Part shown: positions 9,001 to 22,819 of the stretch, in pieces
Layout: the number at the start of each line of letters is the position of its first letter
How positions within the stretch are numbered: the stretch's first letter is position 1
NCBI GenBank assembly: GCA_964483785.1
Contig: CAZACW010000003.1
Coordinates: 20,559-84,558, forward strand
DNA: 64,000 bases
Source: an uncultured Planctomycetales bacterium
GTDB lineage: Bacteria > Omnitrophota > Gorgyraeia > Zapsychrales > Fredricksoniimonadaceae
Direction of reading: 5' to 3'
The notes under the pieces: model-generated
Seen by the model: the letters and a program-made list of their open reading frames with translations, nothing else
Told to the model about the DNA's origin: nothing
Databases searched by the model: none
Made by a program: the position numbers and the translations under genes

Positions 9001-11889
9001 ATTTCGGCCTAAAATGATTTTATGCGTGTTGTTGGGCTCATCTACGAATACAAAGGTCATGGTTTCTGAATCTGTGGTCGGTACGTATTTCAATTTATGC
9101 CATTGACCGTTGATCTGGACGACCCTTAATACACCTTCTTTCGGGTCTTCTGCATTTCTCCACTGGGTCCGGCTGATGAATCGTATTGGTTTGTAAGAGG
9201 GGCCTTGATGCGCGCTTTCGGCATTTTCGACCTCTACACCCAAAAGAAGATCATTGCCTTTGGGCAGTTCGGCATTCGGATAAAATTTATGCGCCAGGGT
9301 CCTGGCCTGGGTGCCGTCCAGTTCTGCCAAGATTGAACGAAAACCAATGACGTTTTCCCGGGTGATCCTTTGGTTTCTGGCCACATCCAGCATGGTCTGG
9401 GCCATGGTCTCATTGGTCATCATCAGCCCTTCCCTGACCTGGCCATTGATTTCGCCCTGGTACCAAACTACAAACGGGTTCATGTTGAAGTCGAAATCCT
9501 CCGCTTCGATGACGGACAAGCGTTGAAATAGCTTTGGGTCCTTGATATGCGCCCATTGCAAGGGGTCGGTAATACGTATCTTGGGTACATAGATGGCGAT
9601 CTGCAGATTATTTTTGATGGCATCCAGGAAAATTTTGGGATCGTTAAACCTGACCAGAGGAGAAAATAAGGCTTTTTCATTCAAATTGGCCAGAATGGCC
9701 ACTGGCCCGCCTTTTTTAAAAAATAATTCGCGTTGAATATTGTCCCTATTCTCTTGGGCTTGGACACTCAGAAGTCTCTGTGGTTCGCTGACTAACTGCG
9801 GCCTGACATTGGAACGAAAATGATTTTCAATAAGGTTCGCTGGAACCATGGTCATGGGAGGTGTGGCCATGGCCTCAAATCGTTGCATCTCAGATTGAGG
9901 AAATGACGGAAAACTGTTTTCATCCATCTGTGTTCTTGTAGTTGTGGGGAGAAACGGCAAAGGAACAGCGGAAGGCTGTACCGAAGCGGGAACCACCCTT
10001 GCAGGAATTGTTGCTGGAGCTGTCCCGATGGCCGCCGCGGGCATATGGAAATTTGCCGTTTCATTGGGATGGACGATCGTATTGTCAGGTGTGATGGTCC
10101 TGGTACCTTGAGGCCCGGTGACAGTCACCCGGCCTTCCTGGATCAGACGGTTGATCGTCATGCGTTGGGATTTGGCTAGGGTATTGTTATAGGCTTGGAT
10201 TTCTGCGGAGCCCATGAAGGTCGTATACAATGATCCCTGGATGCCGGCATTGATCACATGTTCCGGCGGCGGCGCACTGCCGCCGGCCGCTGCAGGTCCA
10301 TGGGCAGGCAGGACCGCGGCCGGCGCTGGAAGCTCTTCGGAACGCACTCCCCCGGCTGCTGCTGTGCGGACAAGGTCCAAATTAAGGACGATTTTATGCG
10401 GCGCTTGATTGGGCAATGACCGCAAATGATAATTGGGCACATCGGTGACAATATCACCGTCAATGCTCAATACGCCTTGGCGGGCCAGCACATCAATGGC
10501 TTTTTTCCAAACATTCAGGTCCTGGCCGGTCTCTTTATACAGCGTGCTGTTGATCAGTCCATACACGCTCCCTGCCCTGCCTTCGGCGTTGATGGCATGC
10601 AGGTCGGAATGATTCTCGGCGTATTGCTGGACAGCGGCAGCCGGCGTATTTAAAAACGGGTTTTCCGCGGCAGATGCCGTGTACATCCCGGCCAAACTGA
10701 CAGGAATGCTCAACAAGGCGCCAAATGCCAAGGCCTTTTTAGCCAGCTGTGCCGAATCCGGACCCTTGACGATCACCATGGCCGCGTTTTGCCAGGACAC
10801 ACCGCCTGAGAAATATTTTCTCGCCACGGTCTCATTGCTCGGCGTCACTTCTTCCTTGATGTAGTTGTACACGCCTTTTTTGTAAGACACCAGATACTGC
10901 CGGAAGATTTCCTCATCCACGTTTTTGTCCGTGACTTCAATGCCGTTGATTTTGCGGCGGTTGACATATCCTTTGGCCATGAGGCTTTCCTTTAATTTGT
11001 TTTTGTACCAAAGGGCCAGGACCAGCGAATTGTAGACCTGCCTTAAATTGGCGAAATTCTCCCCTGTGTTGACTTCTTTTTCCAGGATGGGCAGAATGAC
11101 CTGGCGGATAAGTTGATTGCTTAATTGATGGGCGTCCGGGGTTGGGTGTTTGGCATCAAGGTTTATGTTCTGATCACTGCTCACTGAGCGCTGATCAAGC
11201 GCATGATGCTTATGCATGGACAGATAATCTTCTTCCAACATCACCTTTAATTTGCTTTTGATGATCACGGCTGTATTGGCAGCGGCATTTTCATACACCA
11301 CGGCCTTCTCCGGGACGATCCACACCTTATTGAAGGTGTTCACCGGAATATCGGTGCTGCCCAATTTTTCATAGGCCTGCTGATAGATGGCGCGCCAGAA
11401 GGCACGGCCTACCTTGCCGTCCGGATACATCACAGAAGCCGTAACTTGTTTTAAGAGATAATCCTGGGCCAAGAGTTCCTTGCCCATTTCCGTGATCCCG
11501 AATTCCTTAGGGACGATATGCTCTTTTTCATAGGGGGATAAATTCACCCACATGTCTTTTTGGGGGATGGTCAAAGAGGCGAGAAAATATTTGATCAATC
11601 TTTCCGCTTCATGCTTGAGAAAGACTTTTTTCATCAGGGAGTCATCATCAAATTTAAGTGTGCTGTCCCCTTGCGAAAGCACGAATTCGAATTTGAAGGG
11701 ATTGTTTTTGTAAATTTTAAGGCCGCGGATGAGAGGCGGTGAAAAGCGCGGGGTCAGTGCGACCATTTGACCGGGCGCAGGCAGAAAAGGCACATTGGCC
11801 AAAACAGGTTCAGAGACCAGGGTATTGACCAGGAAGGTGGTAAGAACAGTCCATAAAATAGGTCTATTTATATACTTGTTTTTCAACAT
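1..11889 (-). CDS. Giant secreted protein, 5' end of gene present (ATG at 11889). The ORF runs off the window start, at least 3963 codons. N-terminal signal peptide MLKNKYINRPILWTVLTTFLVNTLVSEPVLA. Hydrophobic TM-like stretch near the window edge. No domain recognised by eye.
   Basis: Hand translation of the minus frame (codon first base at plus coordinates divisible by 3) gave no stop in about 25 sampled 60-nt lines. These were 1-480, 2041-2100, 5821-5880, 7381-7500 and 10681-11889. A TAA lies immediately upstream of the ATG at 11889-11887. The six-frame track lists no minus ORF in this frame across 1-11889, which fits a single open frame lacking an in-window stop. All listed minus ORFs here share the other frame. 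Confidence 0.6.
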   Translation of the reverse strand, partial: MLKNKYINRPILWTVLTTFLVNTLVSEPVLANVPFLPAPGQMVALTPRFSPPLIRGLKIYKNNPFKFEFVLSQGDSTLKFDDDSLMKKVFLKHEAERLIKYFLASLTIPQKDMWVNLSPYEKEHIVPKEFGITEMGKELLAQDYLLKQVTASVMYPDGKVGRAFWRAIYQQAYEKLGSTDIPVNTFNKVWIVPEKAVVYENAAANTAVIIKSKLKVMLEEDYLSMHKHHALDQRSVSSDQNINLDAKHPTPDAHQLSNQLIRQVILPILEKEVNTGENFANLRQVYNSLVLALWYKNKLKESLMAKGYVNRRKINGIEVTDKNVDEEIFRQYLVSYKKGVYNYIKEEVTPSNETVARKYFSGGVSWQNAAMVIVKGPDSAQLAKKALAFGALLSIPVSLAGMYTASAAENPFLNTPAAAVQQYAENHSDLHAINAEGRAGSVYGLINSTLYKETGQDLNVWKKAIDVLARQGVLSIDGDIVTDVPNYHLRSLPNQAPHKIVLNLDLVRTAAAGGVRSEELPAPAAVLPAHGPAAAGGSAPPPEHVINAGIQGSLYTTFMGSAEIQAYNNTLAKSQRMTINRLIQEGRVTVTGPQGTRTITPDNTIVHPNETANFHMPAAAIGTAPATIPARVVPASVQPSAVPLPFLPTTTRTQMDENSFPSFPQSEMQRFEAMATPPMTMVPANLIENHFRSNVRPQLVSEPQRLLSVQAQENRDNIQRELFFKKGGPVAILANLNEKALFSPLVRFNDPKIFLDAIKNNLQIAIYVPKIRITDPLQWAHIKDPKLFQRLSVIEAEDFDFNMNPFVVWYQGEINGQVREGLMMTNETMAQTMLDVARNQRITRENVIGFRSILAELDGTQARTLAHKFYPNAELPKGNDLLLGVEVENAESAHQGPSYKPIRFISRTQWRNAEDPKEGVLRVVQINGQWHKLKYVPTTDSETMTFVFVDEPNNTHKIILGRNYLVQLRSEAFADRFLAEVENKQNQRYQVYLQNKQRFNRAVFLVNLGLSFVPNMKVPVGSILDFGWDIFNRPDLMTMPTETQFMDFVAQYVYHQSGSTANWDQMPDPEKDIFRQQARRMINGELGQEQMTQLQHYIEGKYGYDKIARQMGDALRVLNAATTTLKDSPLSRAARNIPFNPLSGAFNVNYAAAWALNHGPQDAVALRDIAGPNAPVVFRSLLPGIEINFYQLANKIEQETGSGNPLRAPFPHVDGPIISVNFWGLYDTKLRTQLEEITTINKANVRGSGISGYAFDNGWFSGKVHTYTKAEAHAQMMKGFVIGMTENNRPVFAIVERDAKGRESYRLFFPTINGVEENAEQVERDLKTYDKITSVMQQGGVEIYQAALGGDPFHQRTASGALQSMDYIHAGQSNRRGYMFDQSLGLTFAVYANDWNRIQPLEAFIRTIFNAQKTGFQGFAEYYDVYDFRRAQGDGAPGPGPNASILMSLLNLRNALYLKGDNTYTRNDDIINALAVWLGNNWKNENGTEPLALTVGAMGEYRHIMLPGLQQQQSGFNRLFNGSIGSQLDEQYRQMSEALDTRYDPQKGLYKAGGQQKPGINSYLSSDANTRTFLSKGMELFMQSNKMTIEDVMAWWLRVDAEFGINDYYIANGRRFEIRGLSLADADARAHGFGKAVMFEVTSEAVQVLNEIINYAYTHQHPEIVEKASKIRDGYLKTLRIVADANDGNLPQAAHSNIPTGFGYNTQEGTRATAPLLQKSLSEHQINIFRIGRPTLKPPSIIPLPAKVVTDEMTRVDIHIGDKEVDHYRRIIQAQNGRYIRPSGNTEATIESKADGTTVYLHLTRSLAYLQQREINAAIGRINAENMGHAIRGDPGFEGGAGIVSQVRKMPWGIVPGRIIPEPTTGANIRNSTWVRGVFDPQFEQWTDEQKANAQLQGYADLQMTTGPFTTIIYPLDTDVHKITPSPTTGKPVLKVYRNGLLKYSVDEEHIIVPAYDMKLHLEVGTYIYPNPYRSTHVQRLAGVTEYMAQANAVAELAKTPQGKAQAEAVTITLYANFERKAGDHHITKKVVYIGRTNNERRLQIFTDHEYPDSEVTLNEITEYQRNAYGLPPHSEVFFNGDDMTGPLDVEQIAQRLLRPVPGALRTSNTSPIMGQDRNLQRSGFTLPVESLNLSTNITHSLVINASGVVQSNRDADQIGGNTVTQNTQLDYDRSKFSGVVPLASETKSGSGTTLASDRLFNYDQTTGRSWIYHLDEHGQGSFRLFDPRWTQPILVAGKDSLDRWVVTRTDMDRDETHQSSTTTIGQQKGGVTTTSTYDRNHMRWELNVTKWAEQVGQGLALASSTVYQSPFGRTLDVLTASDDGINQRYLPRHDRDGIETGATMDLFNPATHQWVHQFDFSHYRFARGQRIRDVMDLGHQKPSTQMDDMATGLLLAESAPQGVYKSPLGISFEGLVTSRYAYNGPLALVPQTVVNNRGETRRFSGLNSSLLTWQIQGADHKIFYEDTDPKHRGRVSATRAFFDSSSQNVPMAQALWEHRTQNIFRQPTADNIFDLDLIPDSENTNYQNGKPVNRIPVLGSYDVSRLQGTFKIKLDEALSNGSTTVVNQEVIADNQQVAKTIQLAYRYGLERIQWKIIGHKKVVFNWRNEPGSYSVAHGIADTVDVFEINDQGEQVRPLYSAAAKDYNPNDGTLTMLITHYFGNNQDKTWTEMITMSTKGDIQSSIANLVNQQGEQDRKFAYYIYAPEHETYLGLTSENDRRIDLLAGAPPQDASKQDYWYFFADSKDGQMYDDIEVLVTDALGHQVTFTSKMDKSNYFENLLASGQIHELPFIYPYNFTVISTPDQKSPTRESSAVVNVRSLKGRNPFVMPVQWMADAGIDPSKINSVVVHYKGNKDVPVGVSALKTTQQQNEIQITKRQDETVLLGELKRYIADARIQFNSNDTVTADLGWNFGEAVANLQNMKARQGVWAKTREFLQQMKSTHEERDRVQFEILGDGQALMSRYDRDEKLGQWTPLTTIYTFDDLNEKNQPTANVYSGYPGFTVAEEISIVENGYSRMYLLSNGVGIPSIQLFPFAHAGNRPSQTTWQGDAPIIVPNNYGGGAAKAFRELTFNDLYMTFARSYFPKFNPNADHEAIDNVVLDRMRNNRETKPHPVGAFVYNTPFWKLHDLPDHPIPATADLIQIAKAWRNSHTGLIPLTHGTQEQSLDVAKQGDLLAALILSGDQEGIQIAQDILLYQTDKRPFSFWDSTGEGKVPVVNFLNINSGAPQRTTPDLNNPTYSTPKADSQAAITNAVYQLWKANGNPYARTMAMAMARTLVETFYSSDDEIGAFAEEKFVPQVKTLGLNFLGRPNNYLTRTNSKIFLLLNAMRQDTTLDADFRQFLGPRIESLQKFFDTYVMGRVKDESIVPYGFYRRQNGAIEFGEIPGSSSDTWFYFIEAAKAMGRIDDAKGIQLLDMMDRPFEVKTDGQVGLDIAIGPRQRVIAVDSTVNGLRTARLLGYQQAEDGFRRALAAYPRTPENMFPELIGINASAVDPRQGLDSGDMRRFYPRTDGPSPSWAPSLTAGADWLMAQQGGASVYNPAPKDRAQLSFAAPAAHSLFWVAMAYLPLASILLAPFINLLTGAVTKNLLQVRKFYLIGKVKASIPDFDMKDISAAYDLIAQTIEMTDQYGNPIPNPHQDRVHVLRKDIQGPRSLDILSANGFTALIALLKNIQAKDPTVINDDQIKAIINKWSQIFYEEFEKQATYWKTRGSILKSLRRIIGIRFRNNEEDTYTNPRYHPMTLINLYMWDEVKRIRQAEADKQGVKEQVGRSLEILNNEGQFRTWAQTKAKEARHPLLIGAARNLFLVYWIFIAAAFGRAEITHIQSMIHDHLYNNVLFSYIHQFAGSSTWGLLAAGIGLIMMVYMVPETKNPVLSPIAKWTRGLLALGGLGLGASWLMGFIGDYQINFLLPESLSISTGSQVIVHTLMQQVVQNTGLLCAGAAALTASWILDFIQGA

Positions 11890-12098
11890 TTATCCAGTAC
11901 CTTTAAATAAACCTCTTCACTTCTTCATCAAAACTGTTCTCTATATCTAAAGTATATCCCGTTAATAAGGGCTTTGGGCCCCTGAAAGGCCTTTCAAGAG
12001 AAAGCGCTTTCCCGGTTAAACCCCGACGGAGATTAGAGATAATAGAAAAATTTAGATTAAATTTTTAAAAATTAGGGATCGAGGGTTGCTGCGGGAAA

Positions 12099-12512
12099 CT
12101 AAATCGAGGGCGTTTCGGATTTCTGCAGGATCTTCTTGATGAGCTTGAGCGAATTCTCATCGATGCTGGTAAAATAAATCACAAAGCCTTCGCCCGGCAC
12201 CATGCGGGAGATGCGGGCAAGGCCTTGGATCACTTCTGTATCGTTAACGGCACATTGGATGCTGATGCCGATTTCGTCGTTCACGCTCAAATAAAGATTA
12301 TTTTTGATCCTGACAAAGGCGCTGTTTAAGGACAGGTCCTTGATCTGCGCTTTCACGGACAATTGCGACCCGACGCTGACCGTGGCCGGAAATTCCACGT
12401 TGACGCGCGGCTGGCCGCGCTGGTCGCTGTTGCCCAAATAAGCCGTCATAACATTCCTCGATTCATCTAATGATTCAACGGGAGTAATCATCCTGAATCC
12501 GGATGATATCAT
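12099..12512 (-). CDS. PilZ-like domain protein (putative c-di-GMP binding). A more likely start is the internal Met (MTAYLG...) near 12449.
   Basis: 137 aa ORF. It has an RGQPR (RxxxR) motif followed about 25 aa later by a DLSLNS (DxSxxG-like) motif. It is co-directional with the hem operon. Confidence 0.35.
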   Translation of the reverse strand: MISSGFRMITPVESLDESRNVMTAYLGNSDQRGQPRVNVEFPATVSVGSQLSVKAQIKDLSLNSAFVRIKNNLYLSVNDEIGISIQCAVNDTEVIQGLARISRMVPGEGFVIYFTSIDENSLKLIKKILQKSETPSI

Positions 12513-12813
12513 CTTCTCCCAGGTATTTCCCGCAGGCCACTTCGATTAAAACCAAATGCTCAGGGCCTGTATTGCCTATGCGGTGGACGGCGCCTAAAGG
12601 CACATCCACCACGACACCGGGGTTGACAGGGATTTCCTTGCCGTTGACAATGGCCATGCCTTGCCCTGCCACCACGACCCATTTTTCCGACCGGTGCTGG
12701 TGCTTTTGCAGGCTTAACCTCGCTTGAGGGTTGACCTCAATGCGTTTCACCCAAACGCCGGGTTCCTGATGGAACTTGTGATATTGGCCCCACGGCCTTT
12801 TGGTGATTTCCAC
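12475..12813 (-). CDS. Cupin domain protein (mannose-6-phosphate isomerase type II / RmlC-like cupin)
   Basis: 112 aa. The core QKHQHRSEKWVVVAGQGMAIVNGKEIPVNPGVVVDVPLGAVHRIGNTG is typical of the cupin two-His motif 1 and motif 2. Confidence 0.55.
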   Translation of the reverse strand: MEITKRPWGQYHKFHQEPGVWVKRIEVNPQARLSLQKHQHRSEKWVVVAGQGMAIVNGKEIPVNPGVVVDVPLGAVHRIGNTGPEHLVLIEVACGKYLGEDDIIRIQDDYSR

Positions 12814-12818
12814 GACAG

Positions 12819-14081
12819 TTATTTTAGGAAAAAACCCGCGATTTGACCAGATAAATAGTTTAATTCTTTCGCGCTGTGGGCCATGGAAACAAAAAATGTT
12901 TCCAATTCAGCCGGCGGCCAGTAAATCCCCTTCCCTAATAAATAGTGGAAAAGGCGGGCGTATTGCTTTTGGTCCGAGGCTTTCAGGGCCTGCGCGTAAT
13001 TATTCACGGGCCCGGATGAAAAACGGAGGCAGACCATGCTGTGATGATAGGCCAGATGGGCCTGGATGCCGTTGGCCTGCAAAAGGGCATTGGTTTGGAT
13101 GACAAAATTTCTGCTTAGATCATTGAGTTTTTTATAGGCCGGCGGCGTCAATTGATGCAAGACCGCCAGGCCTGCCTGCATCACCACGGGATTGCCTGAA
13201 AAGGTCCCGGCTTGGTAAACGCCGCCTAAAGGCGCCAAATGCCGCATGATGTCCTTGCGTCCGCCATAGGCGCCGACCGGAAAACCGCCGCCGATGATTT
13301 TGCCCAGGCAGGTCAAGTCCGGAATAATGCTAAGCTCCGATTGGGCGCAGCCTAAATTGGACCTGAACCCGCTCATCACTTCATCAAAAATCAGGATGAT
13401 CCCATATTTTTTGGTCAAGGCCCGCAGGCCTTGCAGGAATTCCTTGTGAGGGTTGACCAGGCCCATATTGCCCGGTACAGGTTCAATGATCACGCAGGCG
13501 ATGTCGCGGTGATGGCGTTCAATGGTTTTGGATAAAGTTTGAATATCATTAAACGGCAGGCTTAAAGTGTCCTGCATATGCGCTTGCGGAATGCCCTGGC
13601 TCGAGGAAGCCGGCAAAAAGGCCAGGCCGGAGCCGGCCTTACTTAATAAATCATCGCTGTGCCCATGATAACAGCCGTCGAATTTGATGATTTTGGCGCG
13701 TTTGGTAAAACCGCGGGCTAAGCGCACAGCGCTCATCGTGGCTTCCGTCCCGGAATTGACAAAACGCACCCTGTCGATCGACGGGACATGACGGCAAATG
13801 AAGCGGGCGATTTCAATTTCAGCTTTGGTGGTGGTGCCGAAGCTGGTGCCGTTCTTGAGGGCTTTTTGAATGGCTTTGCGGACTTCACGGTTGTCGTGGC
13901 CCAAGATCAAGGCGCCCCAGGAAAGGCAATAATCAGCATAGCTTCGGCCTTGGATATCATAAAGCCGAAAGCCCCTGCCCCTGGCCATCAGCAGAGGCTT
14001 GCCGCCCACGGCCAAAAAAGCGCGGACCGGGCTGTTGACCCCTCCCACCAATACTTTTTGAGCTGAGTTTAAGAGATCCAT
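12819..14081 (-). CDS. hemL: Glutamate-1-semialdehyde 2,1-aminomutase
   Basis: 420 aa. N-terminal GGVNSPVRAF signature, PLP-dependent class III aminotransferase fold motifs, and a 13-nt overlap with hemB. Confidence 0.95.
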   Translation of the reverse strand: MDLLNSAQKVLVGGVNSPVRAFLAVGGKPLLMARGRGFRLYDIQGRSYADYCLSWGALILGHDNREVRKAIQKALKNGTSFGTTTKAEIEIARFICRHVPSIDRVRFVNSGTEATMSAVRLARGFTKRAKIIKFDGCYHGHSDDLLSKAGSGLAFLPASSSQGIPQAHMQDTLSLPFNDIQTLSKTIERHHRDIACVIIEPVPGNMGLVNPHKEFLQGLRALTKKYGIILIFDEVMSGFRSNLGCAQSELSIIPDLTCLGKIIGGGFPVGAYGGRKDIMRHLAPLGGVYQAGTFSGNPVVMQAGLAVLHQLTPPAYKKLNDLSRNFVIQTNALLQANGIQAHLAYHHSMVCLRFSSGPVNNYAQALKASDQKQYARLFHYLLGKGIYWPPAELETFFVSMAHSAKELNYLSGQIAGFFLK

Positions 14082-15031
14082 TTCAGGGCAGATTTGGCGT
14101 GATAAGAAATGATGATGTCTGCGCCGGCGCGCTTCATCGCGGTCAGGGTTTCCAGGACAATTGATTTTTCATCGATCCATCCGTTTTGCGCGGCGGCCTT
14201 GACCATGCTGTACTCACCGCTGACATTGTAGCCTACGATGGGCACGGTCAATTCCCGGCGAAGTTGGGCGATGATGTCCAAATAAGCCAAGGCAGGTTTC
14301 ACCATGATCATGTCAGCGCCCTCGTTAACGTCTTTTTTGGCTTCTTTCAAGGCCTCGCGGCTGTTGGCAGGGTCCATTTGATAGGATTTGCGGTCGCCTG
14401 ATTTGGGTGTCGAATGGGCGGCATCGCGAAACGGGCCGTAATAAGCCGAAGCATATTTGACTGCATAGGATAAAATGCCCACGTCCTGAAATCGGGCCTG
14501 GTTTAAGGCCTGGCGGATGGCGCTAACGCGAAAATCCATCATGTCCGAAGGAGCGACCCAATCCGCGCCGGCCTGGGCCTGGGCCACGGCCATTTTGCCA
14601 AGCACAGGCAGGGTCTTGTCGTTGTCGATTTTTTCGTTAACGATCAGGCCGCAATGCCCATGGCTCATGTACGCGCACAGGCACACGTCTGTGACGATCA
14701 AAAAATCCGGAAAATGTTTTTTTAAGGCCTTGATGGCCGACAAAACAGGGTTGCCGGCGGCATAGGCGTATTGGCCGGTATTATCTTTGCGGGCCGGCAC
14801 GCCAAAGAGCATGCATCCTTTGCCGCCTTCCCGGATATAATCATCAATATCTTTAAGCAGATAATCCAGGGAAAAGCGGAATATGCCGGGCATGCTGGGG
14901 ATGGCTTCCTTTTTGTTTTTGCCCGCGACGACAAAATAAGGCTGGAGAAGATCATAGGCATTTAAGCGGGTCTCGCGGACAAATTCCCTGATTGCGGGCG
15001 TGGCCCTTAATCTACGATAACGATACGGCAT
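14069..15031 (-). CDS. hemB: Porphobilinogen synthase (delta-aminolevulinic acid dehydratase)
   Basis: 320 aa. Starts MPYRYRRLRATPAIREFVRETRL and carries an active-site lysine region typical of HemB. Overlaps the upstream fusion gene by 20 nt. Confidence 0.95.
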   Translation of the reverse strand: MPYRYRRLRATPAIREFVRETRLNAYDLLQPYFVVAGKNKKEAIPSMPGIFRFSLDYLLKDIDDYIREGGKGCMLFGVPARKDNTGQYAYAAGNPVLSAIKALKKHFPDFLIVTDVCLCAYMSHGHCGLIVNEKIDNDKTLPVLGKMAVAQAQAGADWVAPSDMMDFRVSAIRQALNQARFQDVGILSYAVKYASAYYGPFRDAAHSTPKSGDRKSYQMDPANSREALKEAKKDVNEGADMIMVKPALAYLDIIAQLRRELTVPIVGYNVSGEYSMVKAAAQNGWIDEKSIVLETLTAMKRAGADIIISYHAKSALKWIS

Positions 15032-17084
15032 CTTGATATCCTGAGGCTTGCAAGGTTTGTAAGGTCACCGGCCCCTTGGCCAGGATTTTCCAGGAATTCG
15101 GTATTATACCATAATCCGTCAGGAAATTCCGGACGGTCGAGGGGCTGGTAAAAATGACTCCGTCTATCTTGATCTCGGGCAAAGCGCGCTTGGCCGGCTT
15201 GGTATTTTCATAAATGGTGATTTCCGTGACCTCGGCCCCCTGGGCTTGTAAGGCTTCTTTCAAAAAAGGATTGGGCAGATTTGAGCGCGGCCATAAAATG
15301 GATTTTCCTTTAAGTGTCCATCGCAAAGACATGGCCTTGAACAGGCCTTGCGCGGTTTCTTCCGGAGAGACCAGATCAGCTTCAATGCCGGATTTTTCAA
15401 GCGCCATTTGGGTGCGGCGGCCGATCACTGCAAATTTTTTAGTTTTGAAATCCGTGTTTGGATCAAGGGCCCGTATGGCTTTGATAAAATATTCGCCCGC
15501 ACTCCAGCTGGTGCAGACAATGATCTCGGCCTGCTTAAAACTTTCTTGCAGTGCTTTTGTCTGGGCCTGATTCATGGCCGCAGGCGTGATTTCGATCATG
15601 GGCCAGGACACGATATTCCCCCAGGGTTGATAAGCCTGGGGATGTGTCCCGCAGTGAAGCAGGGTCGGCTTCATTGCAGGTTTATAAAAGTCAATGGTCC
15701 GGCCGGCAAGAATCAGCGCCGGCGGTTTAAGGCCAAGGGCTTTGGCTTCAATGCTCTCAAGGGTGCCTTTGACAATCTGCTCCTTGGCCTTGGTGCCGTT
15801 GGCGATGATCATCATCGGCGTATCCTTGCTCCATCCTGCCTTGCGCAAGGATTGGACGATGGTATTTAATTTGGTCAAGCCCATCAAAAAGACCAGGGTA
15901 TCTGCCTGGGGAAGATGGATGTCCTTGGGATGCTTTTGGTCTTCCTGTTCTTCATGGCCGCTGATAAAGGCCACCGAGGAAGAGATGCCTCTGGCTGTCA
16001 AGGGAATGCCTAAGGCCGAGGGAATGCCGGTGGCAGAACTGACACCGGGAATAATTTCAACTTCAATATGATAGGAGCGCAGATATTGGATCTCATCCGC
16101 TCCCCGGCCGAAAATCAGAGGGTCCCCGCCTTTTAAGCGCACCACATTTTTGCCGGCCATGGCCTTCATTTTAAGCATCCGCGAAAGTTCTTCCTGGGGC
16201 AGCGCCTGCTCACCCTTGCGTTTACCCGCGTAGATGGTTTCAGCTTGAGGCGCGAATTTGAGAAGTTCGGGATCAACCAGATAATCATAGAAAACACAAT
16301 CAGCCGTTTTTAGCGCGTCCACCCCTTTAAGGGTGATCAGGCGGCTGTCCCCTGGCCCGGCACCGACCAGGCTGACCTTGCCGTAATGCCGCCGCACATC
16401 AATGTCCTGAAATAAAACTTCCAAATGCAAATCTTTCCTGCGGCCCACCACAGCCAGCTGGCCTTGCAAAGGCATGGCTTCCCAAGGCAAAAAATCCTTG
16501 ATCCGATGCTCGAGTTTAAGGCGTTTGAGCGCGCAGGCAGCCATCACCAGGCCGTCCAGCTTGCCTTCATCTAATAAGAGCAGGCGTTCCTGGATGGTGC
16601 CGCGGATATGGACAATATCCGCATCGGGCCGCATATGCAGGACCTGATGCTGACGCAAGACGCTGCTGGTGCCGATTTTGGCCCCTGGTTTTAAATCCTG
16701 CCAGGCCATGCGGCTGACCCAGGCGTCCCTGCCATCCATGCCCTTGGTCAAGGCAAAAATTTTCAAGCCCTCCGGCATATTTTGCGGCAGGTCCTTGGCG
16801 CTGTGCACGGCCAGATCAGCCTTATTGCCAAGCAGGGCCTGGTCAATGGCGTCGGTAAAAAAATCATCGCGGCTTTCCGTCAAGGGCGTATGCTTGTCTT
16901 TGTCGCCGCTGGTTTCCATGGTGATCAGCTGAAAATCCAAGGCCCTGCCCTGGATTTTAAGCTCCTGGACAATTTCTTCGACCTGGGCCAAGGCCAAGGG
17001 GCTGAAACGGGAAGCGATTCTAATAGGTTGATTCATAGAGGATATTATACAACGTGAGTTCGACATATTGAGAAAGGCATGCAA
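15012..17084 (-). CDS. hemC/cobA/hemD: Trifunctional fusion of porphobilinogen deaminase (domains 1-2 only), uroporphyrinogen-III C-methyltransferase (CobA/SUMT) and uroporphyrinogen-III synthase (HemD). The likely true start is the Met of MNQPIRIASR near 17036.
   Basis: N-terminus IRIASRFSPLALAQ ... GTSSVLR ... LQGQLAVVGRRKD is HemC-like. Middle VSLVGAGPGD ... VRLKGGDPLIFGRGADE ... IPGVSSA is SUMT. C-terminus KKFAVIGRRT ... GVIFTSPSTV is HemD. The HemC part is about 210 aa and stops where the E. coli domain 3 (Cys242 cofactor loop) would begin. Confidence 0.85.
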   Translation of the reverse strand: MHAFLNMSNSRCIISSMNQPIRIASRFSPLALAQVEEIVQELKIQGRALDFQLITMETSGDKDKHTPLTESRDDFFTDAIDQALLGNKADLAVHSAKDLPQNMPEGLKIFALTKGMDGRDAWVSRMAWQDLKPGAKIGTSSVLRQHQVLHMRPDADIVHIRGTIQERLLLLDEGKLDGLVMAACALKRLKLEHRIKDFLPWEAMPLQGQLAVVGRRKDLHLEVLFQDIDVRRHYGKVSLVGAGPGDSRLITLKGVDALKTADCVFYDYLVDPELLKFAPQAETIYAGKRKGEQALPQEELSRMLKMKAMAGKNVVRLKGGDPLIFGRGADEIQYLRSYHIEVEIIPGVSSATGIPSALGIPLTARGISSSVAFISGHEEQEDQKHPKDIHLPQADTLVFLMGLTKLNTIVQSLRKAGWSKDTPMMIIANGTKAKEQIVKGTLESIEAKALGLKPPALILAGRTIDFYKPAMKPTLLHCGTHPQAYQPWGNIVSWPMIEITPAAMNQAQTKALQESFKQAEIIVCTSWSAGEYFIKAIRALDPNTDFKTKKFAVIGRRTQMALEKSGIEADLVSPEETAQGLFKAMSLRWTLKGKSILWPRSNLPNPFLKEALQAQGAEVTEITIYENTKPAKRALPEIKIDGVIFTSPSTVRNFLTDYGIIPNSWKILAKGPVTLQTLQASGYQDAVSLS

Positions 17085-17135
17085 GGATATGTTTTTGATA
17101 AAGCGATGTGCTTTTCCCCCCAGGCGCGCAGAGAC

Positions 17136-17163
17136 CCATCACAACCCCCGGGGGTTGTGATGG
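17136..17163. repeat. 28-bp perfect GC-rich palindrome CCATCACAACCCCCGGGGGTTGTGATGG, copy 1 of 3
   Basis: Read directly. Intergenic, about 50-100 nt upstream of the hemC-fusion start on the minus strand. Near-identical copies lie at 18599-18622 and 47311-47337. Confidence 0.8.
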
Positions 17164-17372
17164 TATCCATGCGTACCGTCGGGTGGCCGAGGGAGGGGCA
17201 TCGCCCGTTGAGCGAGGCTTTTGCGAGCGAAACGGGGATACCCGAGGCCAGGACCCGACGGTCTGCTAAACATGTCCTTGCGTGCCTATAGATAGCGTTA
17301 TGTCGAACTGACGTTATACAAGAATTGGGAGGACACAATACTGAATTCAATCGTCGGGCCTTTAGGAGCCCC

Positions 17373-18566
17373 CTAAGGCGCTACATACTTATCGACCACA
17401 TAGCTTGCGAAAGGCAGGGAACAGGTCAGGGCCGGCGAGACAGCATTGAGCACATGGACGCTTTGTCCATCGCCCTCCACCACGAAATCCTGGACCAAAT
17501 TTAAAGTTGTGCGGTTAAGCAATTGGGCCCGGATCCCGGGCTTGGTCCAGTCCGTGAAGCCTTCAGGGTCAATGCGCTTGACCATGGATTGGGCCAGGCC
17601 GATGAAATATTTTTTGTCGTATTTGCGCATTTCTTCATGGGCCAGGGCGCGGAAATTAAAGGCATTGCTTGCGTACAGCTTGGTTTCGTAGAAAAGCACT
17701 TCGGACATTTCTTTAAAATCGAATCCGTGCCGGATATCGTAATTTTCGCGCCAAAACGCCGGGATCGCGGTGGGGCCGATTTTAATGTCGCCATTGACGG
17801 TCTTGGTAAAATGCACGCCTAAAAAAGGGTTTTTTAAATTTGGGACCGGATAAACATGGACGGAAACATCGTCCTTATTTTTAGTGTATTTCAGATAAAG
17901 GCCTTTGAAAGGGACCATGGTGTAACGTTTTCCAAATCCGAAATCCTGGGCCACCTTGTCCGCGTAAAGCCCGGCGCAATTGATGATCTTATCGCCCAAG
18001 AAATCGCCTTGCCGGGTATGGATGAGATTACGGGTATGTCCCAAATATTTGGTATTGAATGAGAATTCCACATCCTTTTGCATTAAATCCTCTTTGAGGC
18101 TGGCGCAGACCTGCACAGGGTCAATGCTGGCCGTATCCGGGGAATACAAGGCCTGCTTAAAGGTTTTGACATTAGGGTCTATGGCTGACACCTCTTCTTC
18201 TGTGATCAACCGCACATTGGAACCATTGGCCTTGCCCCGGCGCAAAAGCTCCTGCAGTTGGGACAATTCTTCCTCATTTTGGGCGACCACTAATTTTCCG
18301 CACGCATTCAGGCTCAAGCCCTTGGATTGCACATAGGCCCGCAGGGCCTTGTTGCCTTCCACGGTGAATCTGGCTTTCAGGGAATCAGCCGTATAATAAA
18401 AACCGGCGTGCAGAACACCGCTGTTGCGGCCTGAGGCATGCATGGCCTGGGCCTCTTCTTTGTCCAGAATGAGGATTTTGGCCATGGGCTTGCGCGCCTT
18501 AAGGGCACGCGCCATGGCCAGTCCTATGATGCCGGAACCAATGATGATAAAATCATAATTTTTCAT
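17373..18566 (-). CDS. FAD-dependent oxidoreductase, L-2-hydroxyglutarate oxidase (LhgO/YgaF)-like
   Basis: N-terminal MKNYDFIIIGSGIIGLAMARAL dinucleotide-binding motif. RNSGVLHAGFYY and overall collinearity with the LhgO family as recalled. The ORF track starts at 18605 inside the palindrome. Start at 18566 is more plausible. Confidence 0.65.
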   Translation of the reverse strand: MKNYDFIIIGSGIIGLAMARALKARKPMAKILILDKEEAQAMHASGRNSGVLHAGFYYTADSLKARFTVEGNKALRAYVQSKGLSLNACGKLVVAQNEEELSQLQELLRRGKANGSNVRLITEEEVSAIDPNVKTFKQALYSPDTASIDPVQVCASLKEDLMQKDVEFSFNTKYLGHTRNLIHTRQGDFLGDKIINCAGLYADKVAQDFGFGKRYTMVPFKGLYLKYTKNKDDVSVHVYPVPNLKNPFLGVHFTKTVNGDIKIGPTAIPAFWRENYDIRHGFDFKEMSEVLFYETKLYASNAFNFRALAHEEMRKYDKKYFIGLAQSMVKRIDPEGFTDWTKPGIRAQLLNRTTLNLVQDFVVEGDGQSVHVLNAVSPALTCSLPFASYVVDKYVAP

Positions 18567-18598
18567 ATGTGAGGTTAATTTTGCTAAAATAACGTCGA

Positions 18599-18622
18599 CC
18601 ATCACAACCCCGGGGGTTGTGG
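18599..18622. repeat. Palindrome copy 2 (CCATCACAACCCCGGGGGTTGTGG, right arm degenerate)
   Basis: Read directly. It lies in the divergent region between the LhgO-like gene (minus) and the plus-strand small-protein gene. Confidence 0.75.
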
Positions 18623-18668
18623 AGGTTAAAATGAGAAAACAAATTATATCATTAAGAGGGAGGATTCG

Positions 18669-18944
18669 ATGAATAAATTAACTTTTGGCTTAAGTTCGAT
18701 CATCGTGGCCCTGAGTTTTTGTTTGGGGACTGCCATCAACAGCCGGGCCCAGGACAAAAGCTTCTCAGGCGTTATACCCTTTGTGACCAGCAATGACCGG
18801 GTCGGGTTTTTAGACCAAAACAACGGCAAGGTCTATGTCTATGACAATAATCTGGGATCGTGCGTGTTCACCGGCCAGATCCAAACCCTGGGGGCACCGA
18901 TCCAAGTGATATCTTCACCTGCGGTAAACACCGTCAATCCATGA
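18669..18944 (+). CDS. Small secreted protein (signal peptide, cleavage around SRA-QD), hypothetical
   Basis: 91 aa with a strong SD (GAGGGAGG) 6 nt upstream. The stop TGA overlaps the ATG of the next gene (ATGA). One of only two plus-strand genes in the window. Confidence 0.5.
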   Translation: MNKLTFGLSSIIVALSFCLGTAINSRAQDKSFSGVIPFVTSNDRVGFLDQNNGKVYVYDNNLGSCVFTGQIQTLGAPIQVISSPAVNTVNP

Positions 18945-19168
18945 GCCGCAAACATCCCTTTACCATGCGGGTCAAGCCGGGCCGTTACGTTTGGTGCAGC
19001 TGCGTTGAATCCAAGCGACTGCCTTTTTGCGACGGGTCCCATGTCCGGACCGGCAGTACGCCGATGTTTGTCGAGATCACGCAAGAGCAGGAAGTTTCCT
19101 GGTGCGGCTGTAAGATGAGCGCCAAAAAACCGTTTTGCGACGGGACCCACGAACGCGCGGGATCATAG
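18941..19168 (+). CDS. CDGSH iron-sulfur domain protein (two CDGSH-type motifs)
   Basis: From ATG 18941 the sequence is MSRKHPF ... CSCVESKRLPFCDGSHV ... CGCKMSAKKPFCDGTHE. That gives two C-x-C-x(n)-CDG(S/T)H motifs, about 75 aa. It is translationally coupled to the upstream gene. Confidence 0.65.
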   Translation: MSRKHPFTMRVKPGRYVWCSCVESKRLPFCDGSHVRTGSTPMFVEITQEQEVSWCGCKMSAKKPFCDGTHERAGS

Positions 19169-20134
19169 CAGGCTGTGGGCGGTTGATGAGGCAATGTCTT
19201 TAAGGGCTTTAAGCAATTGCCGGCCGTGGGTGTTCAGGCGGCTGTGGGTGCTGCGGGTAGAAAGATTCATCACTCCTAAAATTTCTTTGTTGTTTCTGAT
19301 GATGGGCACAATCAGCGCACATTTTAATTCCGGCTTAATCATCAAATGACGGATGCGGTTATTTTGACCTTGGGCCTGGACCATCATCGGCTTTTTGCTT
19401 TGGGCCGCCAAACCTGCGATACCCTCCCCTAATTTGATGCCCACGCCCTGGGCCTTGCCCAGATTCATGCCCTTGACCATTTGAACATTCAGCTCATCCG
19501 TGCGTTTGTTAAACACCATCAGCGACCCGCATTCAGCCTGGGTCAAGGCCATGGACAATTCCAATAAATTTTTGAACACGGATAAGGACGCCGGGGATGG
19601 TTTGAAGGCAGTGACAGGCGCATCGGTTTCCTTGGACATGATCCTTAAGGCATACTGGGACAATTCCGCAAAAAGATCGAGCATGGATTTCAAGCCGTTA
19701 AAGGTCACGGCCCTGATCTCATTTAAAGAAGCCAGAAATTCCGCGGGATCAGCCCCAAGATCTTGGGCCATGGCCTTGTATTGGGCATGTTCCAAGGGTT
19801 TGTTGATGATCACCGGGCCTATAATCAAATAGGCCAAATGGTCCAGGCCGGCCGCGGCCATGGGAACAGCGAAATAATGCAGGCCAAGCTGGTCCGCGGC
19901 CTTTAAATAAGGGCCCTCTTTTTGGAATTGGGAAAGAAAACCGGATCCTCCAAGGCCCTGAAAAGCGCCCCAGCGCAAGGCCGCCTGTATGCCGTGGCCG
20001 CTGTTTTGCGGTGCTAAGATCGGCCTGCCTTCAGAGTCCGTCATCATGATATGGATGCGCAGCACATCCATAAAATTCACAAGGATCTGGCCTAATTGGG
20101 GACTGGCCTGGATTTTATCAATGATCATTTTCAT
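19163..20134 (-). CDS. GAF-domain protein (C-terminal GAF, N-terminal uncharacterised sensor-like domain). Last gene of the HK-RR-GAF operon.
   Basis: 323 aa. The C-terminal LGEGIAGLAAQSKKPMMV ... ILGVMNLS is GAF-like. Its start overlaps the end of the response-regulator gene by 17 nt. Confidence 0.55.
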   Translation of the reverse strand: MKMIIDKIQASPQLGQILVNFMDVLRIHIMMTDSEGRPILAPQNSGHGIQAALRWGAFQGLGGSGFLSQFQKEGPYLKAADQLGLHYFAVPMAAAGLDHLAYLIIGPVIINKPLEHAQYKAMAQDLGADPAEFLASLNEIRAVTFNGLKSMLDLFAELSQYALRIMSKETDAPVTAFKPSPASLSVFKNLLELSMALTQAECGSLMVFNKRTDELNVQMVKGMNLGKAQGVGIKLGEGIAGLAAQSKKPMMVQAQGQNNRIRHLMIKPELKCALIVPIIRNNKEILGVMNLSTRSTHSRLNTHGRQLLKALKDIASSTAHSLL

Positions 20135-21503
20135 CGGTCAGCGGTATCCCGTATTTTTTCATATTATTGTAAAGCGTGGTGCGGTTGATCCCCAGTTTTT
20201 GCGCGGTCTTGCTGCGGTTGCCATGGCAGTCTTTCAAGGCCTTAAGAATAATGTCCTTGGCCGGACCCTTTAATCCTTCCTGAAGTGATTTAGGCTCAGC
20301 CTTGATTTTGCTGTTGACGAAATTTTTAGGTAAATCTTCCTTGCCGATCATTTTCTTTTTGGCGATAATGGCCGCCCCTTCAATGACGTTTTCCAATTGG
20401 CGCACATTGCCGGGCCAGGCATGGGTCTCAAACAAGGCCTGGACTTCCTCATCAATGCCGGTGATGCTTTTATGGTTTTTGTGGTTGGAGGCTTCGATGA
20501 AATGCTTGACCAGCAGGGAAATATCTTCCCGGCGCTCCCTTAAAGGAGGCATGTGCAAAGGCAGGACATGGATGCGGTAATACAGGTCTTCCCGGAAAGA
20601 GCCTTCTTCAACGAGCTGTTCTAAGTCCTGATTGGAAGCCACGATGACCCGGGCATTGGTCTTTAACGTCTGGGTGTCCCCCACCCTTTCAAAACCGCCG
20701 TCCTGCAGAATGCGCAGCAATTTCACCTGCAGATTGGGCGAACAGGAATTGATTTCATCTAAGAAGATGGTGCCGTTTTGGGCCATTTCAAAGCGGCCTT
20801 TTTTGTCCTTGATGGCGCCGGTAAAGGCCCCTTTGACATGGCCGAACAATTCGCTCTCCAGCAAGGTCTCGGAGAGGGCGCCGCAGCTGACCTCCACAAA
20901 GGGCATGCGGCGGCGTTTGGAGTCATTGTCGTGCACAGCCCTGGCTGCCAGGCCCTTGCCCGTGCCGCTTTCTCCGGTGATCATGATGGTCGCGTTGGTA
21001 TCAGCGACGGATTCGATAAGGCTGTACACCGATTGGATGGCACTGCTGCGGCCGATCATGCCGAAAAAAGAGCCGGCCTTGGCCTTGGGGCCGTGCTGAC
21101 GCAGCTGCTGGCTTTCCTGCAGCAGGCGCTTCTTCTCGATGATTTTGGCCATCAGGTCCTTGACCTGGTCATCCACGATCGGCTTGGTGATGTAATCAAA
21201 GGCGCCCATTTTCATGGCTTCCACCGCCGAAGCGATGCTGCCGTAGCCGGTGATCAGGACCACCTCGGTCAAGGGCGAGGTCTTCTTAATGAAGGCCAAA
21301 AGGTCAAGCCCGCTTTTATCCGGCAATTTCATGTCCGTCATAACAATGTCAAAGGAGCGCTGGGCCGCAAGATGCGAAGCTTCCTGGACGCTGGAGGCCA
21401 TGGCCGCGTCAAAGCCCGCGATCTTCATGGTTTCATACAAGGACTTGCGGATCAAAGGCTCATCATCGACGATCAGGATGGAGTAGGGGTTTAGGCTCAT
21501 CAT
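20118..21503 (-). CDS. Sigma-54-dependent response regulator, NtrC family (REC + AAA+ sigma-54 activator + Fis-type HTH). PrsR-like by context.
   Basis: REC domain (ILIVDDE ... D ... K). Walker A GESGTGKG, GAFTGA sigma-54 contact motif, ESELFGH, and a C-terminal HTH RSKTAQKLGINRTTLYNNMKKYGI. Confidence 0.9.
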   Translation of the reverse strand: MMSLNPYSILIVDDEPLIRKSLYETMKIAGFDAAMASSVQEASHLAAQRSFDIVMTDMKLPDKSGLDLLAFIKKTSPLTEVVLITGYGSIASAVEAMKMGAFDYITKPIVDDQVKDLMAKIIEKKRLLQESQQLRQHGPKAKAGSFFGMIGRSSAIQSVYSLIESVADTNATIMITGESGTGKGLAARAVHDNDSKRRRMPFVEVSCGALSETLLESELFGHVKGAFTGAIKDKKGRFEMAQNGTIFLDEINSCSPNLQVKLLRILQDGGFERVGDTQTLKTNARVIVASNQDLEQLVEEGSFREDLYYRIHVLPLHMPPLRERREDISLLVKHFIEASNHKNHKSITGIDEEVQALFETHAWPGNVRQLENVIEGAAIIAKKKMIGKEDLPKNFVNSKIKAEPKSLQEGLKGPAKDIILKALKDCHGNRSKTAQKLGINRTTLYNNMKKYGIPLTDENDH

Positions 21504-22756
21504 GGGGCCTCGGCCAGGGGCAGTTTGATGCTGAAGGTCGTCCCTTCCTTCAAACGGCTTTTGACCTTGATTTTTCCATTATACAATTTGACGATTTCAT
21601 TGACCACGGTCAAGCCTAAGCCGCAGCCTTTGTCAATGTCCTTGGTGGTAAAAAACGGCTCGAAAATTTTGTCTAAATCAGCGGCCGTGATGCCGTGCCC
21701 GGTATCGGTGATGGCAATTTTGATAAACCCGTCTTCCGTCAGGGTGCGGATTTCGATGCAGCCGTTTTTGTCAATGGCATCAATGGCGTTTTTGATCAAA
21801 TTGCTGAAAACGCGCTCCAGGCCCCAGTCCGTTATTTCAGGGACATTGTGCGCGAAATGCTTGACGAGCTTGATGTTTTTGGCGGCCAGGTACGGATAAA
21901 GTTCCTTAAGGGCACCCTCGATGGTTTTATGGATATCGGCCTTGCGGGCGCTTTCAGGGGATTGGCGCGCGCAGGCCAGCAGGTTTTTGACGATATTGGC
22001 CATGCGTTTAAGGCCCATCTGCACCTCGGTCAAGTATTCTTTTAAGACCTCATCGTTTTGAGCGTGAGACATGCACAGATGATTGTAGCGCATCACCCCG
22101 TCTAAAGGATTGTTGAATTCATGGGCGATCCCTCCTGCCAATTTGCCGAGGGAGACCAGCCGCTCCTGCGATTCGATCTGCTTTTTCAATCCGCTGGTCT
22201 CCTCGCGGGCATGGCCCAATTGATGGGCCATCACGATGCGCTGATAATTAAGCGCAATTTGGTTCGACAAAAAATCCAACAGCTGGTGTTCCCGGTGGGT
22301 AAATGGTTTGGGAGGATTTTTGGCGTAAATGTGCACACTGCCCGTCAGCTTGTCCTTGATCATCAAGGGCGAAGCTATCGCGGTTTTGCTTCTATAGCCT
22401 TTGCCCGGGCCTAAGGTTTTAAGCAATTCCTCTTGATCGTTGTCTTTAAGGCCCACCGAGGCCTTAAGAAGCATCTGGTGGGTCTGGGGATCCAGCAGAA
22501 AAATGGCCCCGCGCCGGGCCTTGAAGACCGGCAAGGTGCTTTGTAAGGCGTCTTTGAAAAGATGCTGGGTGTCGATGGATTCTGAACACAGCACACAGAC
22601 CGCATTGATTTTTTCAAGAAGATTCGACAGCGGAGACGGCGCTTTGTGCTTTTTGAGGGGCATAATCCTGGCTGAGGCAGTCAATGTGTCTATCATATTA
22701 TCGTCAAATGAAAGGATCGTCAAACATCGAATGCATAAAAAAAGCAGACCTTTCAC
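21500..22756 (-). CDS. Cytoplasmic sensor histidine kinase with GAF domain (HisKA + HATPase_c). The GTG start at 22756 is doubtful. ATG at 22696 is more likely.
   Basis: H-box LAGGIAHEFNNPL. N-box and G-boxes NLIKNAIDA ... DTGHGI ... GLGLTVV. No TM segments. Overlaps the RR gene by 4 nt. Confidence 0.85.
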   Translation of the reverse strand: MKGLLFLCIRCLTILSFDDNMIDTLTASARIMPLKKHKAPSPLSNLLEKINAVCVLCSESIDTQHLFKDALQSTLPVFKARRGAIFLLDPQTHQMLLKASVGLKDNDQEELLKTLGPGKGYRSKTAIASPLMIKDKLTGSVHIYAKNPPKPFTHREHQLLDFLSNQIALNYQRIVMAHQLGHAREETSGLKKQIESQERLVSLGKLAGGIAHEFNNPLDGVMRYNHLCMSHAQNDEVLKEYLTEVQMGLKRMANIVKNLLACARQSPESARKADIHKTIEGALKELYPYLAAKNIKLVKHFAHNVPEITDWGLERVFSNLIKNAIDAIDKNGCIEIRTLTEDGFIKIAITDTGHGITAADLDKIFEPFFTTKDIDKGCGLGLTVVNEIVKLYNGKIKVKSRLKEGTTFSIKLPLAEAP

Positions 22757-22768
22757 AAGGACTGCTTT
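22737..22768 (-). terminator. Putative intrinsic terminator or attenuator between the sugar-transferase gene and the histidine-kinase gene
   Basis: Minus-strand RNA is AAAGCAG(U)CC-UUGUGAAA-GG(U)CUGCUUU followed by UUUUUUU. It ends at the GTG/ATG region of the kinase ORF. Confidence 0.35.
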
Positions 22769-22819
22769 GCATCACAGGTCTATAGGGTAAAATCAGGGGT
22801 TGTGTAGTGTATTAAAGGG

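Follow-up and report, generated by a model that had tools for sequence, protein, structure and literature searches.

Repetitive extragenic palindromic (REP) sequences and bacterial interspersed mosaic elements (BIMEs), described in Enterobacteria and Pseudomonas together with RAYT proteins, REPtrons and REPINs, are short (20-40 bp), GC-rich palindromes found as near-identical copies scattered outside genes. They lie mostly between co-directional genes, can form hairpins in both RNA and single-stranded DNA, and have imperfect stems arranged in inverted doublets. In the two large REP superfamilies one end of the stem bears a tag, GTAG or CGTC, that stays unpaired (PMC3733652). Those of the CGTC superfamily have stems of 8-9 bp that start with A-T pairs, loops of 4-5 nt and a CCA tail, and no dedicated transposase was known for them as of 2013 (Di Nocera et al. 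2013, PMC3733652). Here we describe a palindrome, CCATCACAACCCC(C)GGGGGTTGTGATGG, present in three full copies in a 64-kb stretch of contig CAZACW010000003.1 from an uncultured bacterium of the Omnitrophota (64,000 nt, referred to below as the window). It shares with REPs and BIMEs its small size and GC-rich symmetry, the near-identity, extragenic scatter and mostly co-directional setting of its copies, and the ability to form RNA and single-stranded DNA hairpins. Unlike REPs, the copies are perfect single palindromes without GTAG, the window encodes no RAYT, and copy 2 lies in a divergent promoter region, an unusual place for a REP (PMC3733652). We consider it probable that the palindrome is a young, lineage-specific dispersed repeat of REP type that was gained by insertion, rather than a shared regulatory operator. 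This reading is favored because the copies are near-identical and extragenic, and because the orthologous spacers of related genomes lack them and differ from the window in the manner expected of insertions. A preliminary description of the stretch had offered a dispersed element, of the REP type or of the type of miniature inverted-repeat transposable elements (MITEs), as one of its explanations, and it is this one that the evidence favors.

With up to three mismatches allowed, 100 shuffled sequences yielded no match to the palindrome, and none is thus expected by chance; the three full copies of the preliminary description are real. The 13-mer arm, with up to two mismatches, has 10 matches in the window where 2.5 are expected. 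Copy 1 has a centre of 10 nt, one more than the 9 nt of copies 2 and 3; otherwise the copies are identical over 27 nt. They differ only at the apex (CCCCCGGGGG versus CCCCGGGGG) and at the foot of copy 2, a distribution that suits a hairpin unit. The right arm of copy 2 reads GGGGTTGTGGAGG, with two mismatches that create GGAGG; its earlier designation as degenerate is borne out, and its end coordinate moves from 18622 to 18625. At copy 3, weaker AT-rich pairing carries the stem out to 47298-47350. Self-BLAST of the window delimits the repeated unit to the palindrome plus 1 nt on each side, indicating that the copies are not portions of a longer repeated element. The copies stand singly, none having a second unit within hundreds of nucleotides of it.

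All three copies are intergenic. According to the curated gene list, non-coding DNA amounts to 1,680 nt (2.6%) of the window, and the probability that three random placements would all fall within it is about 2e-5. The distance to the downstream ATG is approximately 99 nt for copy 1, 32 nt for copy 2 and 11 nt for copy 3. The last of these lies 36 nt past the stop codon of a GH123-like gene (47374) and 11 nt ahead of the ATG of a giant gene encoding a Big_7 protein (47299).

The half-site reported at 22791-22805 reduces to a lone 9-mer (Table 1). Such a 9-mer is expected 0.82 times per window, which places a single extra occurrence at chance level, and it has no folding potential (-0.6 kcal/mol). 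On one side of it is the stop codon of a sugar-transferase gene (22820), on the other an intrinsic terminator that is conserved (22741-22768 plus a T-run), and this 3' region can in part be aligned with relatives. It is probably a chance occurrence outside the palindrome family. The terminator itself, on the minus strand, consists of GCAGAC...GTCTGC followed by seven T; it separates the sugar-transferase and histidine-kinase genes and is conserved in two related contigs (L056 and L060).

Table 1. Features of the window discussed in the text, and hairpins of the soil unit
Feature	Position	Strand	Description
Palindrome copy 1	17136-17163	none	CCATCACAACCCCCGGGGGTTGTGATGG; perfect 28-bp palindrome; folded, a 12-bp stem with a 4-nt loop
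Palindrome copy 2	18599-18625	none	CCATCACAACCCCGGGGGTTGTGGAGG; left arm exact, centre 1 nt shorter
Palindrome copy 3	47311-47337	none	CCATCACAACCCCGGGGGTTGTGATGG; perfect over 27 bp, 29 bp counting the flanking A/T
Lone 9-mer ('half-site')	22796-22804	+	GGGGTTGTG
Imperfect foldback, about 280 bp	17045-17321	none	arms 17045-17097 and 17268-17321; encloses copy 1 and an 87-nt hairpin (17173-17259)
Segment B	17037-17100	-	decayed duplicate of the LhgO 3' end and the ancestral LhgO/hemC junction
Segment A	17373-17436	-	functional LhgO 3' end (...PFASYVVDKYVAP*); other copy of the duplicated target
Left direct-repeat member, copy 2 insertion	18583-18593	+	GCTAAAATAAC
Right direct-repeat member, copy 2 insertion	18625-18635	+	GTTAAAATGAG; 8/11 identical; aligns with TAAAAT of the relatives
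Extended -10 element of LhgO	18643-18651	-	TGATATAAT (TGnTATAAT); invariant in the alignment of window and relatives
Giant open reading frame	1-11889	-	at least 3,963 codons, runs off the start of the window; first 1,200 residues without Pfam match
Soil-unit hairpin 1			AATCCC-AAC-GGGATT
Soil-unit hairpin 2			CCCAGGGT...ACCCTGGG
Soil-unit hairpin 3 (innermost)			ATCACAACCCC-AAC-GGGGTTGTG

Comparison with related genomes bears directly on the origin of copies 1 and 2. The closest syntenic relatives are the Omnitrophota-like contigs L056-L060, and those homologues of LhgO and of the GH123-like protein that carry a source name come from metagenome-assembled genomes (MAGs) of Candidatus Omnitrophica/Omnitrophota. 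From the exosortase block through the hem operon the gene order of these contigs is that of the window; the DNA is about 70% identical, and their LhgO proteins share 76-79% identity with that of the window. Spacers were aligned with L056, L059 and L060. Between LhgO and hemC the window has 336 nt (17037-17372) where every relative has 8 nt, and copy 1 lies in this extra DNA. The divergent spacer at LhgO, 59-62 nt long in the relatives, aligns with the window apart from a block of about 42 nt that carries copy 2, is missing from all three contigs and is edged by an imperfect 11-nt direct repeat. In these alignments no palindrome is present at the orthologous LhgO-hemC and LhgO-leader sites, and over 21 kb the relatives' loci contain no comparable hairpin. 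The absence of the extra DNA from the relatives implies that copies 1 and 2 were gained, and the alignments thus show both as insertions into a conserved gene order, not as inherited regulatory sites. This synteny comparison, one of the checks proposed when the palindrome was first noticed, also changes the view that the copies precede three unrelated genes, since copies 1 and 2 flank a single gene, LhgO, which in the relatives is 8 nt from hem. For the copy 3 locus the nearest homologue is too distant to align; its GH123-like protein is 57% identical and is followed by a 326-nt spacer without the palindrome. The relatives also carry, between their PocR-GAF and CDGSH genes, a gene for a protein of 341-353 amino acids without Pfam match (8387-9448 in L056), which has no counterpart at 18944-19163 of the window.

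The extra DNA around copy 1 forms an imperfect foldback that the relatives lack (Table 1). The minus strand folds at a minimum free energy of -135.3 kcal/mol (z = -9.2) and the plus strand at -138.7 kcal/mol (z = -9.3), and arm-to-arm alignment scores 54, compared to 15.7 +/- 2.9 in shuffles. Identity reaches 87% in the best arm, and the terminal arms are 23 nt long. Because the two strands fold equally well, the symmetry belongs to the DNA and is not evidence of a structured RNA. Segment B aligns with the relatives with a score of 34-35, whereas shuffles score 16.1 +/- 3.1 with a maximum of 29. The 3' end of LhgO is thus found three times within 17037-17440, as the functional end (segment A), as a decayed direct copy (segment B) and as an inverted copy (17268-17321), and the decayed and inverted copies are the arms of the foldback. 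No second copy of the foldback was found in the window or in plasmids, and Rfam gave no match for 16900-18800 at E <= 1. A retron-like element or other structured RNA was considered for the foldback and rejected: both strands fold alike, no reverse transcriptase gene is present, and the arms copy the LhgO 3' end. The palindrome resembles MITEs in its insertion-type differences from the relatives, in the short imperfect repeat at copy 2 and in the enclosure of copy 1 in a 280-bp foldback. It differs from them in that the repeated unit is only about 29 bp, the foldback is unique and built from local copies of the LhgO 3' end, and a flanking repeat of this kind is found at copy 2 alone.

To place the palindrome among known sequences, we scanned 185,579 reference species genomes with a 20-nt core, TCACAACCCC-N0-4-GGGGTTGTGA. 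Only six loci were found, all singletons in unrelated MAGs, which by our own estimate (roughly three) is about as many as chance would give. None of these genomes has several copies, and the viral contigs and plasmids gave no match. It follows that the family in this form is limited to the lineage of the window. At one of the six, present in two Bacteroidaceae MAGs (L001, 6671-6692; L004, 5134-5155), the stem TCACAACCCC-GC-GGGGTTGTGA lies between an A-run and a T-run. By its sequence this appears to be an ordinary bidirectional terminator, and it shows that the stem can arise independently. A scan of metagenomes with the same core returned no contig of the source organism, and a literature search for palindromic repeats in Omnitrophota found nothing relevant.

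The metagenome scan did reveal a family of hairpins associated with a transposase. Approximately 40 of its 48 matching loci belong to one family with a conserved context, from soil Verrucomicrobia and Acidobacteria, and acidobacterial genomes carry the unit as well. Aligned, the unit is about 100 nt long and consists of three hairpins (Table 1). In eight soil loci the innermost, hairpin 3, precedes by about 20 nt a gene for a protein that starts with MPQSLS. The open reading frame (ORF) encodes 151 amino acids in five of six translated loci (MPQSLSAVYLHLVFSTKDR...) and 139 in the sixth. Directly after its stop codon the three-hairpin unit is repeated in inverted order, in all five loci whose downstream flank was read. 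The 151-residue protein is a Y1_Tnp, or IS200-type, transposase (PF01797 at 5e-21; NF033573), and its close homologues in Verrucomicrobia bear the JGI name 'REP element-mobilizing transposase RayT'. Loci with the transposase and its flanking units include L029 (2000-2900, minus strand), L032, L014, L034, L050, L012 and L023. In about half of 24 soil hairpins that were not selected by the search pattern the 9-bp stem CACAACCCC/GGGGTTGTG is exact, indicating that it is the usual form in this family. By eye, a conserved CGTC precedes the hairpin by 8-9 nt. Rfam matched no family at the soil loci. Many solo units are also scattered between genes there, where they are often translated as spurious 'hypothetical proteins'.

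The window palindrome and the innermost soil hairpin have in common this 9-bp stem and the two bases preceding it. Both occur as dispersed intergenic copies, and the hosts of the soil units, from phyla that are akin to Omnitrophota or occur alongside them, include members of the Planctomycetes-Verrucomicrobia-Chlamydiae (PVC) group, to which both Omnitrophota and Verrucomicrobia belong. They differ in architecture: the soil hairpin has a 9-bp stem, an AAC/GTT loop and two companions, whereas the stem of the window palindrome measures 12-13 bp and its centre is of the CCGG type, and hairpins 1 and 2 are absent from the window. From the sequences compared, we regard the stem match as a lead rather than as membership, the probability of its arising by chance being perhaps a few percent. 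The CGTC-tagged REPs resemble the palindrome as small palindromic repeats and through a CGTC by the foot of copy 2; copies 1 and 3 lack CGTC, and the window stem is 12-13 bp long.

If the palindrome is a REP-type repeat, it would spread as a hairpin-forming single-stranded DNA substrate. The likely agent would be an IS200-like Y1 (HUH) transposase of RayT type, encoded elsewhere in the genome; an agent of this type is proposed because the CACAACCCC/GGGGTTGTG stem forms the innermost hairpin on both sides of the soil RayT gene. Once in place, the palindrome would be transcribed as part of neighboring mRNAs and fold into a hairpin of -16 to -24 kcal/mol. Copy 1 would then reside in the 3' region of LhgO ahead of the hemC promoter, copy 2 in both divergent leaders, and copy 3 in the spacer between the GH123-like and giant genes, with its extended stem over the start codon. 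Hairpins can block 3'-exonucleases, slow read-through and mask initiation regions; such effects would be by-products, not the reason for the copies.

Computed for RNA, the hairpins have z-scores of -2.7 to -4.7. Copy 1 folds to -24.0 kcal/mol on the minus strand and -21.6 kcal/mol on the plus strand, and copy 2 to -16.1/-18.7 kcal/mol. The extended stem of copy 3 reaches -28.8 kcal/mol and takes in the AUG of the Big_7 giant gene. The preliminary description placed all three full copies between the likely promoter and the start codon, which needs correction for copy 1. Judging from the conserved extended -10 element of LhgO, copy 2 would occupy about +12 to +38 of the LhgO transcript, whose 5' end is predicted near 18636. 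On the plus strand, TGnTAAAAT from GCTAAAATAAC lies 17 nt past TTCATA (18562-18567), and this putative promoter, TTCATA-17-TGCTAAAAT, would start transcription about 2 nt ahead of copy 2, near 18597. The -10 of this promoter stems from the duplicated copy of the flanking repeat; the other copy, to which the relatives' -10 element aligns, is now found past the palindrome. At hemC, a minus-strand TATAAT (17044-17049) is followed after 7 nt by the ATG (17036), an arrangement conserved in all four genomes (window, L056 at 11183-11202, L059 and L060), and the relatives carry a TG upstream of the TATAAT. This suggests that hemC is transcribed from a promoter inside the LhgO 3' end, as an mRNA with no leader or nearly none. 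Since copy 1 lies about 90 nt upstream of this TATAAT, it belongs to the LhgO 3' region and not to a hem leader. Around copy 3 the scan found no promoter-like or terminator-like site, and the copy is probably intercistronic, between the GH123-like and Big_7 giant genes.

The palindrome also bears on gene starts and their annotation. The right-arm substitutions of copy 2 place GGAGG 5 nt ahead of an ATG on the plus strand (18631), where the relatives have ATA. From this ATG runs an ORF of 13 codons, and its TGA shares bases with the start codon (ATG, 18669) of the gene for a 91-residue secreted protein. On the minus strand, GTGATGG of the palindrome arm shares the reading frame of the gene that follows it at copy 2 (18602) and copy 3 (47314-47317). 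By its length of 409 amino acids, a public LhgO record (P0001) would begin with the ATG within copy 2, 12 codons before the conserved LhgO start. The longest ORF of the Big_7 giant gene begins at a GTG inside copy 3.

In the broad sense the palindrome has the form of a REP, an extragenic palindromic unit of 27-28 bp with a stem of 12-13 bp. Several observations weigh against this assignment. With just three copies in the window, the high copy number that defines REPs, tens to hundreds, is unproven. The GTAG or CGTC tag, which in the tagged superfamilies stands unpaired at the stem end, is wanting next to the stem; the sole CGTC is at copy 2 (18591-18594), 2 nt from the foot allowing for the A at 18598. 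The copies are single, not the inverted pairs with a short spacer that make a REPIN. A REPtron has a single-copy Y1/HUH transposase gene with the same REP, inverted, on its two sides; no gene for a Y1 or other transposase lies within the 64 kb, and about 40 ORFs of the window include, by Pfam, no transposase, RAYT/Y1_Tnp or repressor-type regulator. Copy 2 is edged by the 11-nt imperfect repeat and copy 1 by a duplication of about 60 nt; to our knowledge, Y1 transposition leaves no target duplication. The match to the RayT-family stem amounts to 9-11 nt of information, and the same stem serves independently as a terminator in Bacteroidaceae. Lastly, at about 70% nucleotide identity the relatives are distant, and absence from them, taken alone, leaves room for newly evolved regulatory sites.

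We next weighed whether the palindrome could have been kept for a function in RNA, as a stem-loop that sets mRNA half-life, attenuates read-through or masks initiation, with its spread being secondary. We hold this to be unlikely, though it is the strongest of the competing explanations. REPs of E. coli stabilize upstream mRNA, the hairpins of the window are strong, and their locations are suggestive: copy 2 would begin some 2 nt into the inferred plus-strand transcript, the extended stem of copy 3 covers the AUG of the giant gene, and copy 1 separates LhgO from hemC. On the other hand, the element and the foldback fold equally on both strands with no strand-specific (G-U) signature, the placement relative to promoters and start codons differs from locus to locus (with the ATG about 99, 32 or 11 nt downstream), and the relatives do without hairpins at these places. 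In the LhgO mRNA about 12 nt would separate the stem from the 5' end, which is too much for cap-like protection. The stabilizing 5'-terminal stem-loop envisaged earlier is plausible for copy 2 alone, and there for the plus-strand transcript; copy 1 lies upstream of the conserved hemC -10, and no promoter was detected upstream of copy 3. A departure from known REPs would account for the flanking duplications. Here the palindrome would represent an undescribed class of untagged, single-unit Omnitrophota REP that duplicates its target on insertion, is mobilized otherwise than by RAYT/IS200-type single-stranded DNA transposition, and has copies put to use by the host. At copy 2 about 11 nt would be duplicated, and at copy 1 about 60 nt, with an inverted copy besides; the host uses could include a rebuilt -10, a Shine-Dalgarno sequence and a leader ORF at copy 2, and the uncoupling of LhgO from hem at copy 1. 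We consider this rather improbable.

Less credence still is due to a dimeric transcription-factor operator that would unite LhgO and heme synthesis with the secreted Big_7 protein in one regulon, the common repressor operator of the preliminary description. Perfect dyad symmetry would suit such a site, copy 2 has a conserved -10 element on either side in a region of divergent promoters, and at a distance of 1.5 kb (20118-21503) the window encodes a sigma-54 response regulator carrying HTH_8. Yet the same promoters lack the site in every syntenic relative, where the regulator genes themselves are kept. Over 27 bases, the centre included, the three sites are identical, where the operators of a regulon normally share only degenerate half-sites, and the half-site spacing of copy 1 differs by 1 bp from that of copies 2 and 3. 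Position is no better: copy 1 precedes the hemC -10 by about 90 nt, no promoter-like site lies ahead of copy 3, and copies 1 and 2 flank one gene of a single ancestral operon. The window contains no candidate repressor gene. A CRP-like site was rejected, as TCACA and TGTGA are everted and 12-13 nt apart. With regard to a sigma-54 enhancer site, no -24/-12 element was seen by eye beside copy 1, where no pattern scan was run. That the copies are intrinsic, possibly bidirectional, terminators sharing their sequence by happenstance seems very improbable. On the transcribed strand copies 1 and 3 do follow a stop codon, and the stem with its A-run and T-run is terminator-like in the two Bacteroidaceae genomes. 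However, no U-tract follows any copy on either strand, and terminator scans did not report them; the genome possesses canonical hairpin-plus-T7 terminators, such as that at 22741-22768, which is conserved in relatives; and copy 2, between divergent genes, has nothing to terminate. We give the least weight of all to an artefact of the metagenome-assembled contig. Over 11867-17080 the independent Logan assembly of run SRR12313480 agrees with the window at 100% identity, but it ends 55 nt before copy 1; both Logan contigs of this run lie within the window and span none of the copies, and no independent contig was found across any copy. Against an artefact, the three copies occupy three unique contexts whose flanks are not mutual fold-backs, the arms of the foldback around copy 1 match imperfectly (87% at best), which is not the case in hairpins made by assemblers, and copy 2 has substitutions of its own.

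The genes of the window are nearly all on the minus strand. Near LhgO they encode PilZ and cupin proteins, hemL, hemB, a fused hemC/cobA/hemD and LhgO itself; opposite these, a plus-strand pair encodes a small secreted protein and a CDGSH protein. The regulators and sensors comprise a PocR-GAF protein, the sigma-54 response regulator with HTH_8, which is the sole DNA-binding regulator encoded in the window, and a GAF histidine kinase. Elsewhere there are a PEP-CTERM/exosortase block, a block resembling type II secretion or type IV pilus systems, three Big_7 proteins, the GH123-like gene and a long glycosyltransferase cluster; the giant ORF at the start of the window is listed in Table 1. The only Rfam match in the window is a cyclic di-GMP (c-di-GMP-I-GGC) riboswitch (RF03167, 60.8 bits, E = 7e-12) at 40776-40867 on the minus strand, in the 369-nt spacer upstream of the gene for a 1110-residue Big_7 protein (37361-40693). 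By eye, a similar-looking leader precedes the giant gene of another relative (L061, 3380-3470).

At the LhgO locus, a tight LhgO-hemC junction has been turned into a 336-nt structured spacer, and a divergent promoter region has gained a stem-loop in both of its leaders. The palindrome thus provides an example of a small hairpin repeat remodelling operon architecture in a poorly known candidate phylum. It also touches annotation, as the starts of the LhgO and Big_7 genes may be misplaced into copies 2 and 3. Without the link to RayT the palindrome would be an ordinary repeat. If the link holds, a REP recognition hairpin would be common to several phyla, which would be of interest for the study of domesticated Y1 transposases.

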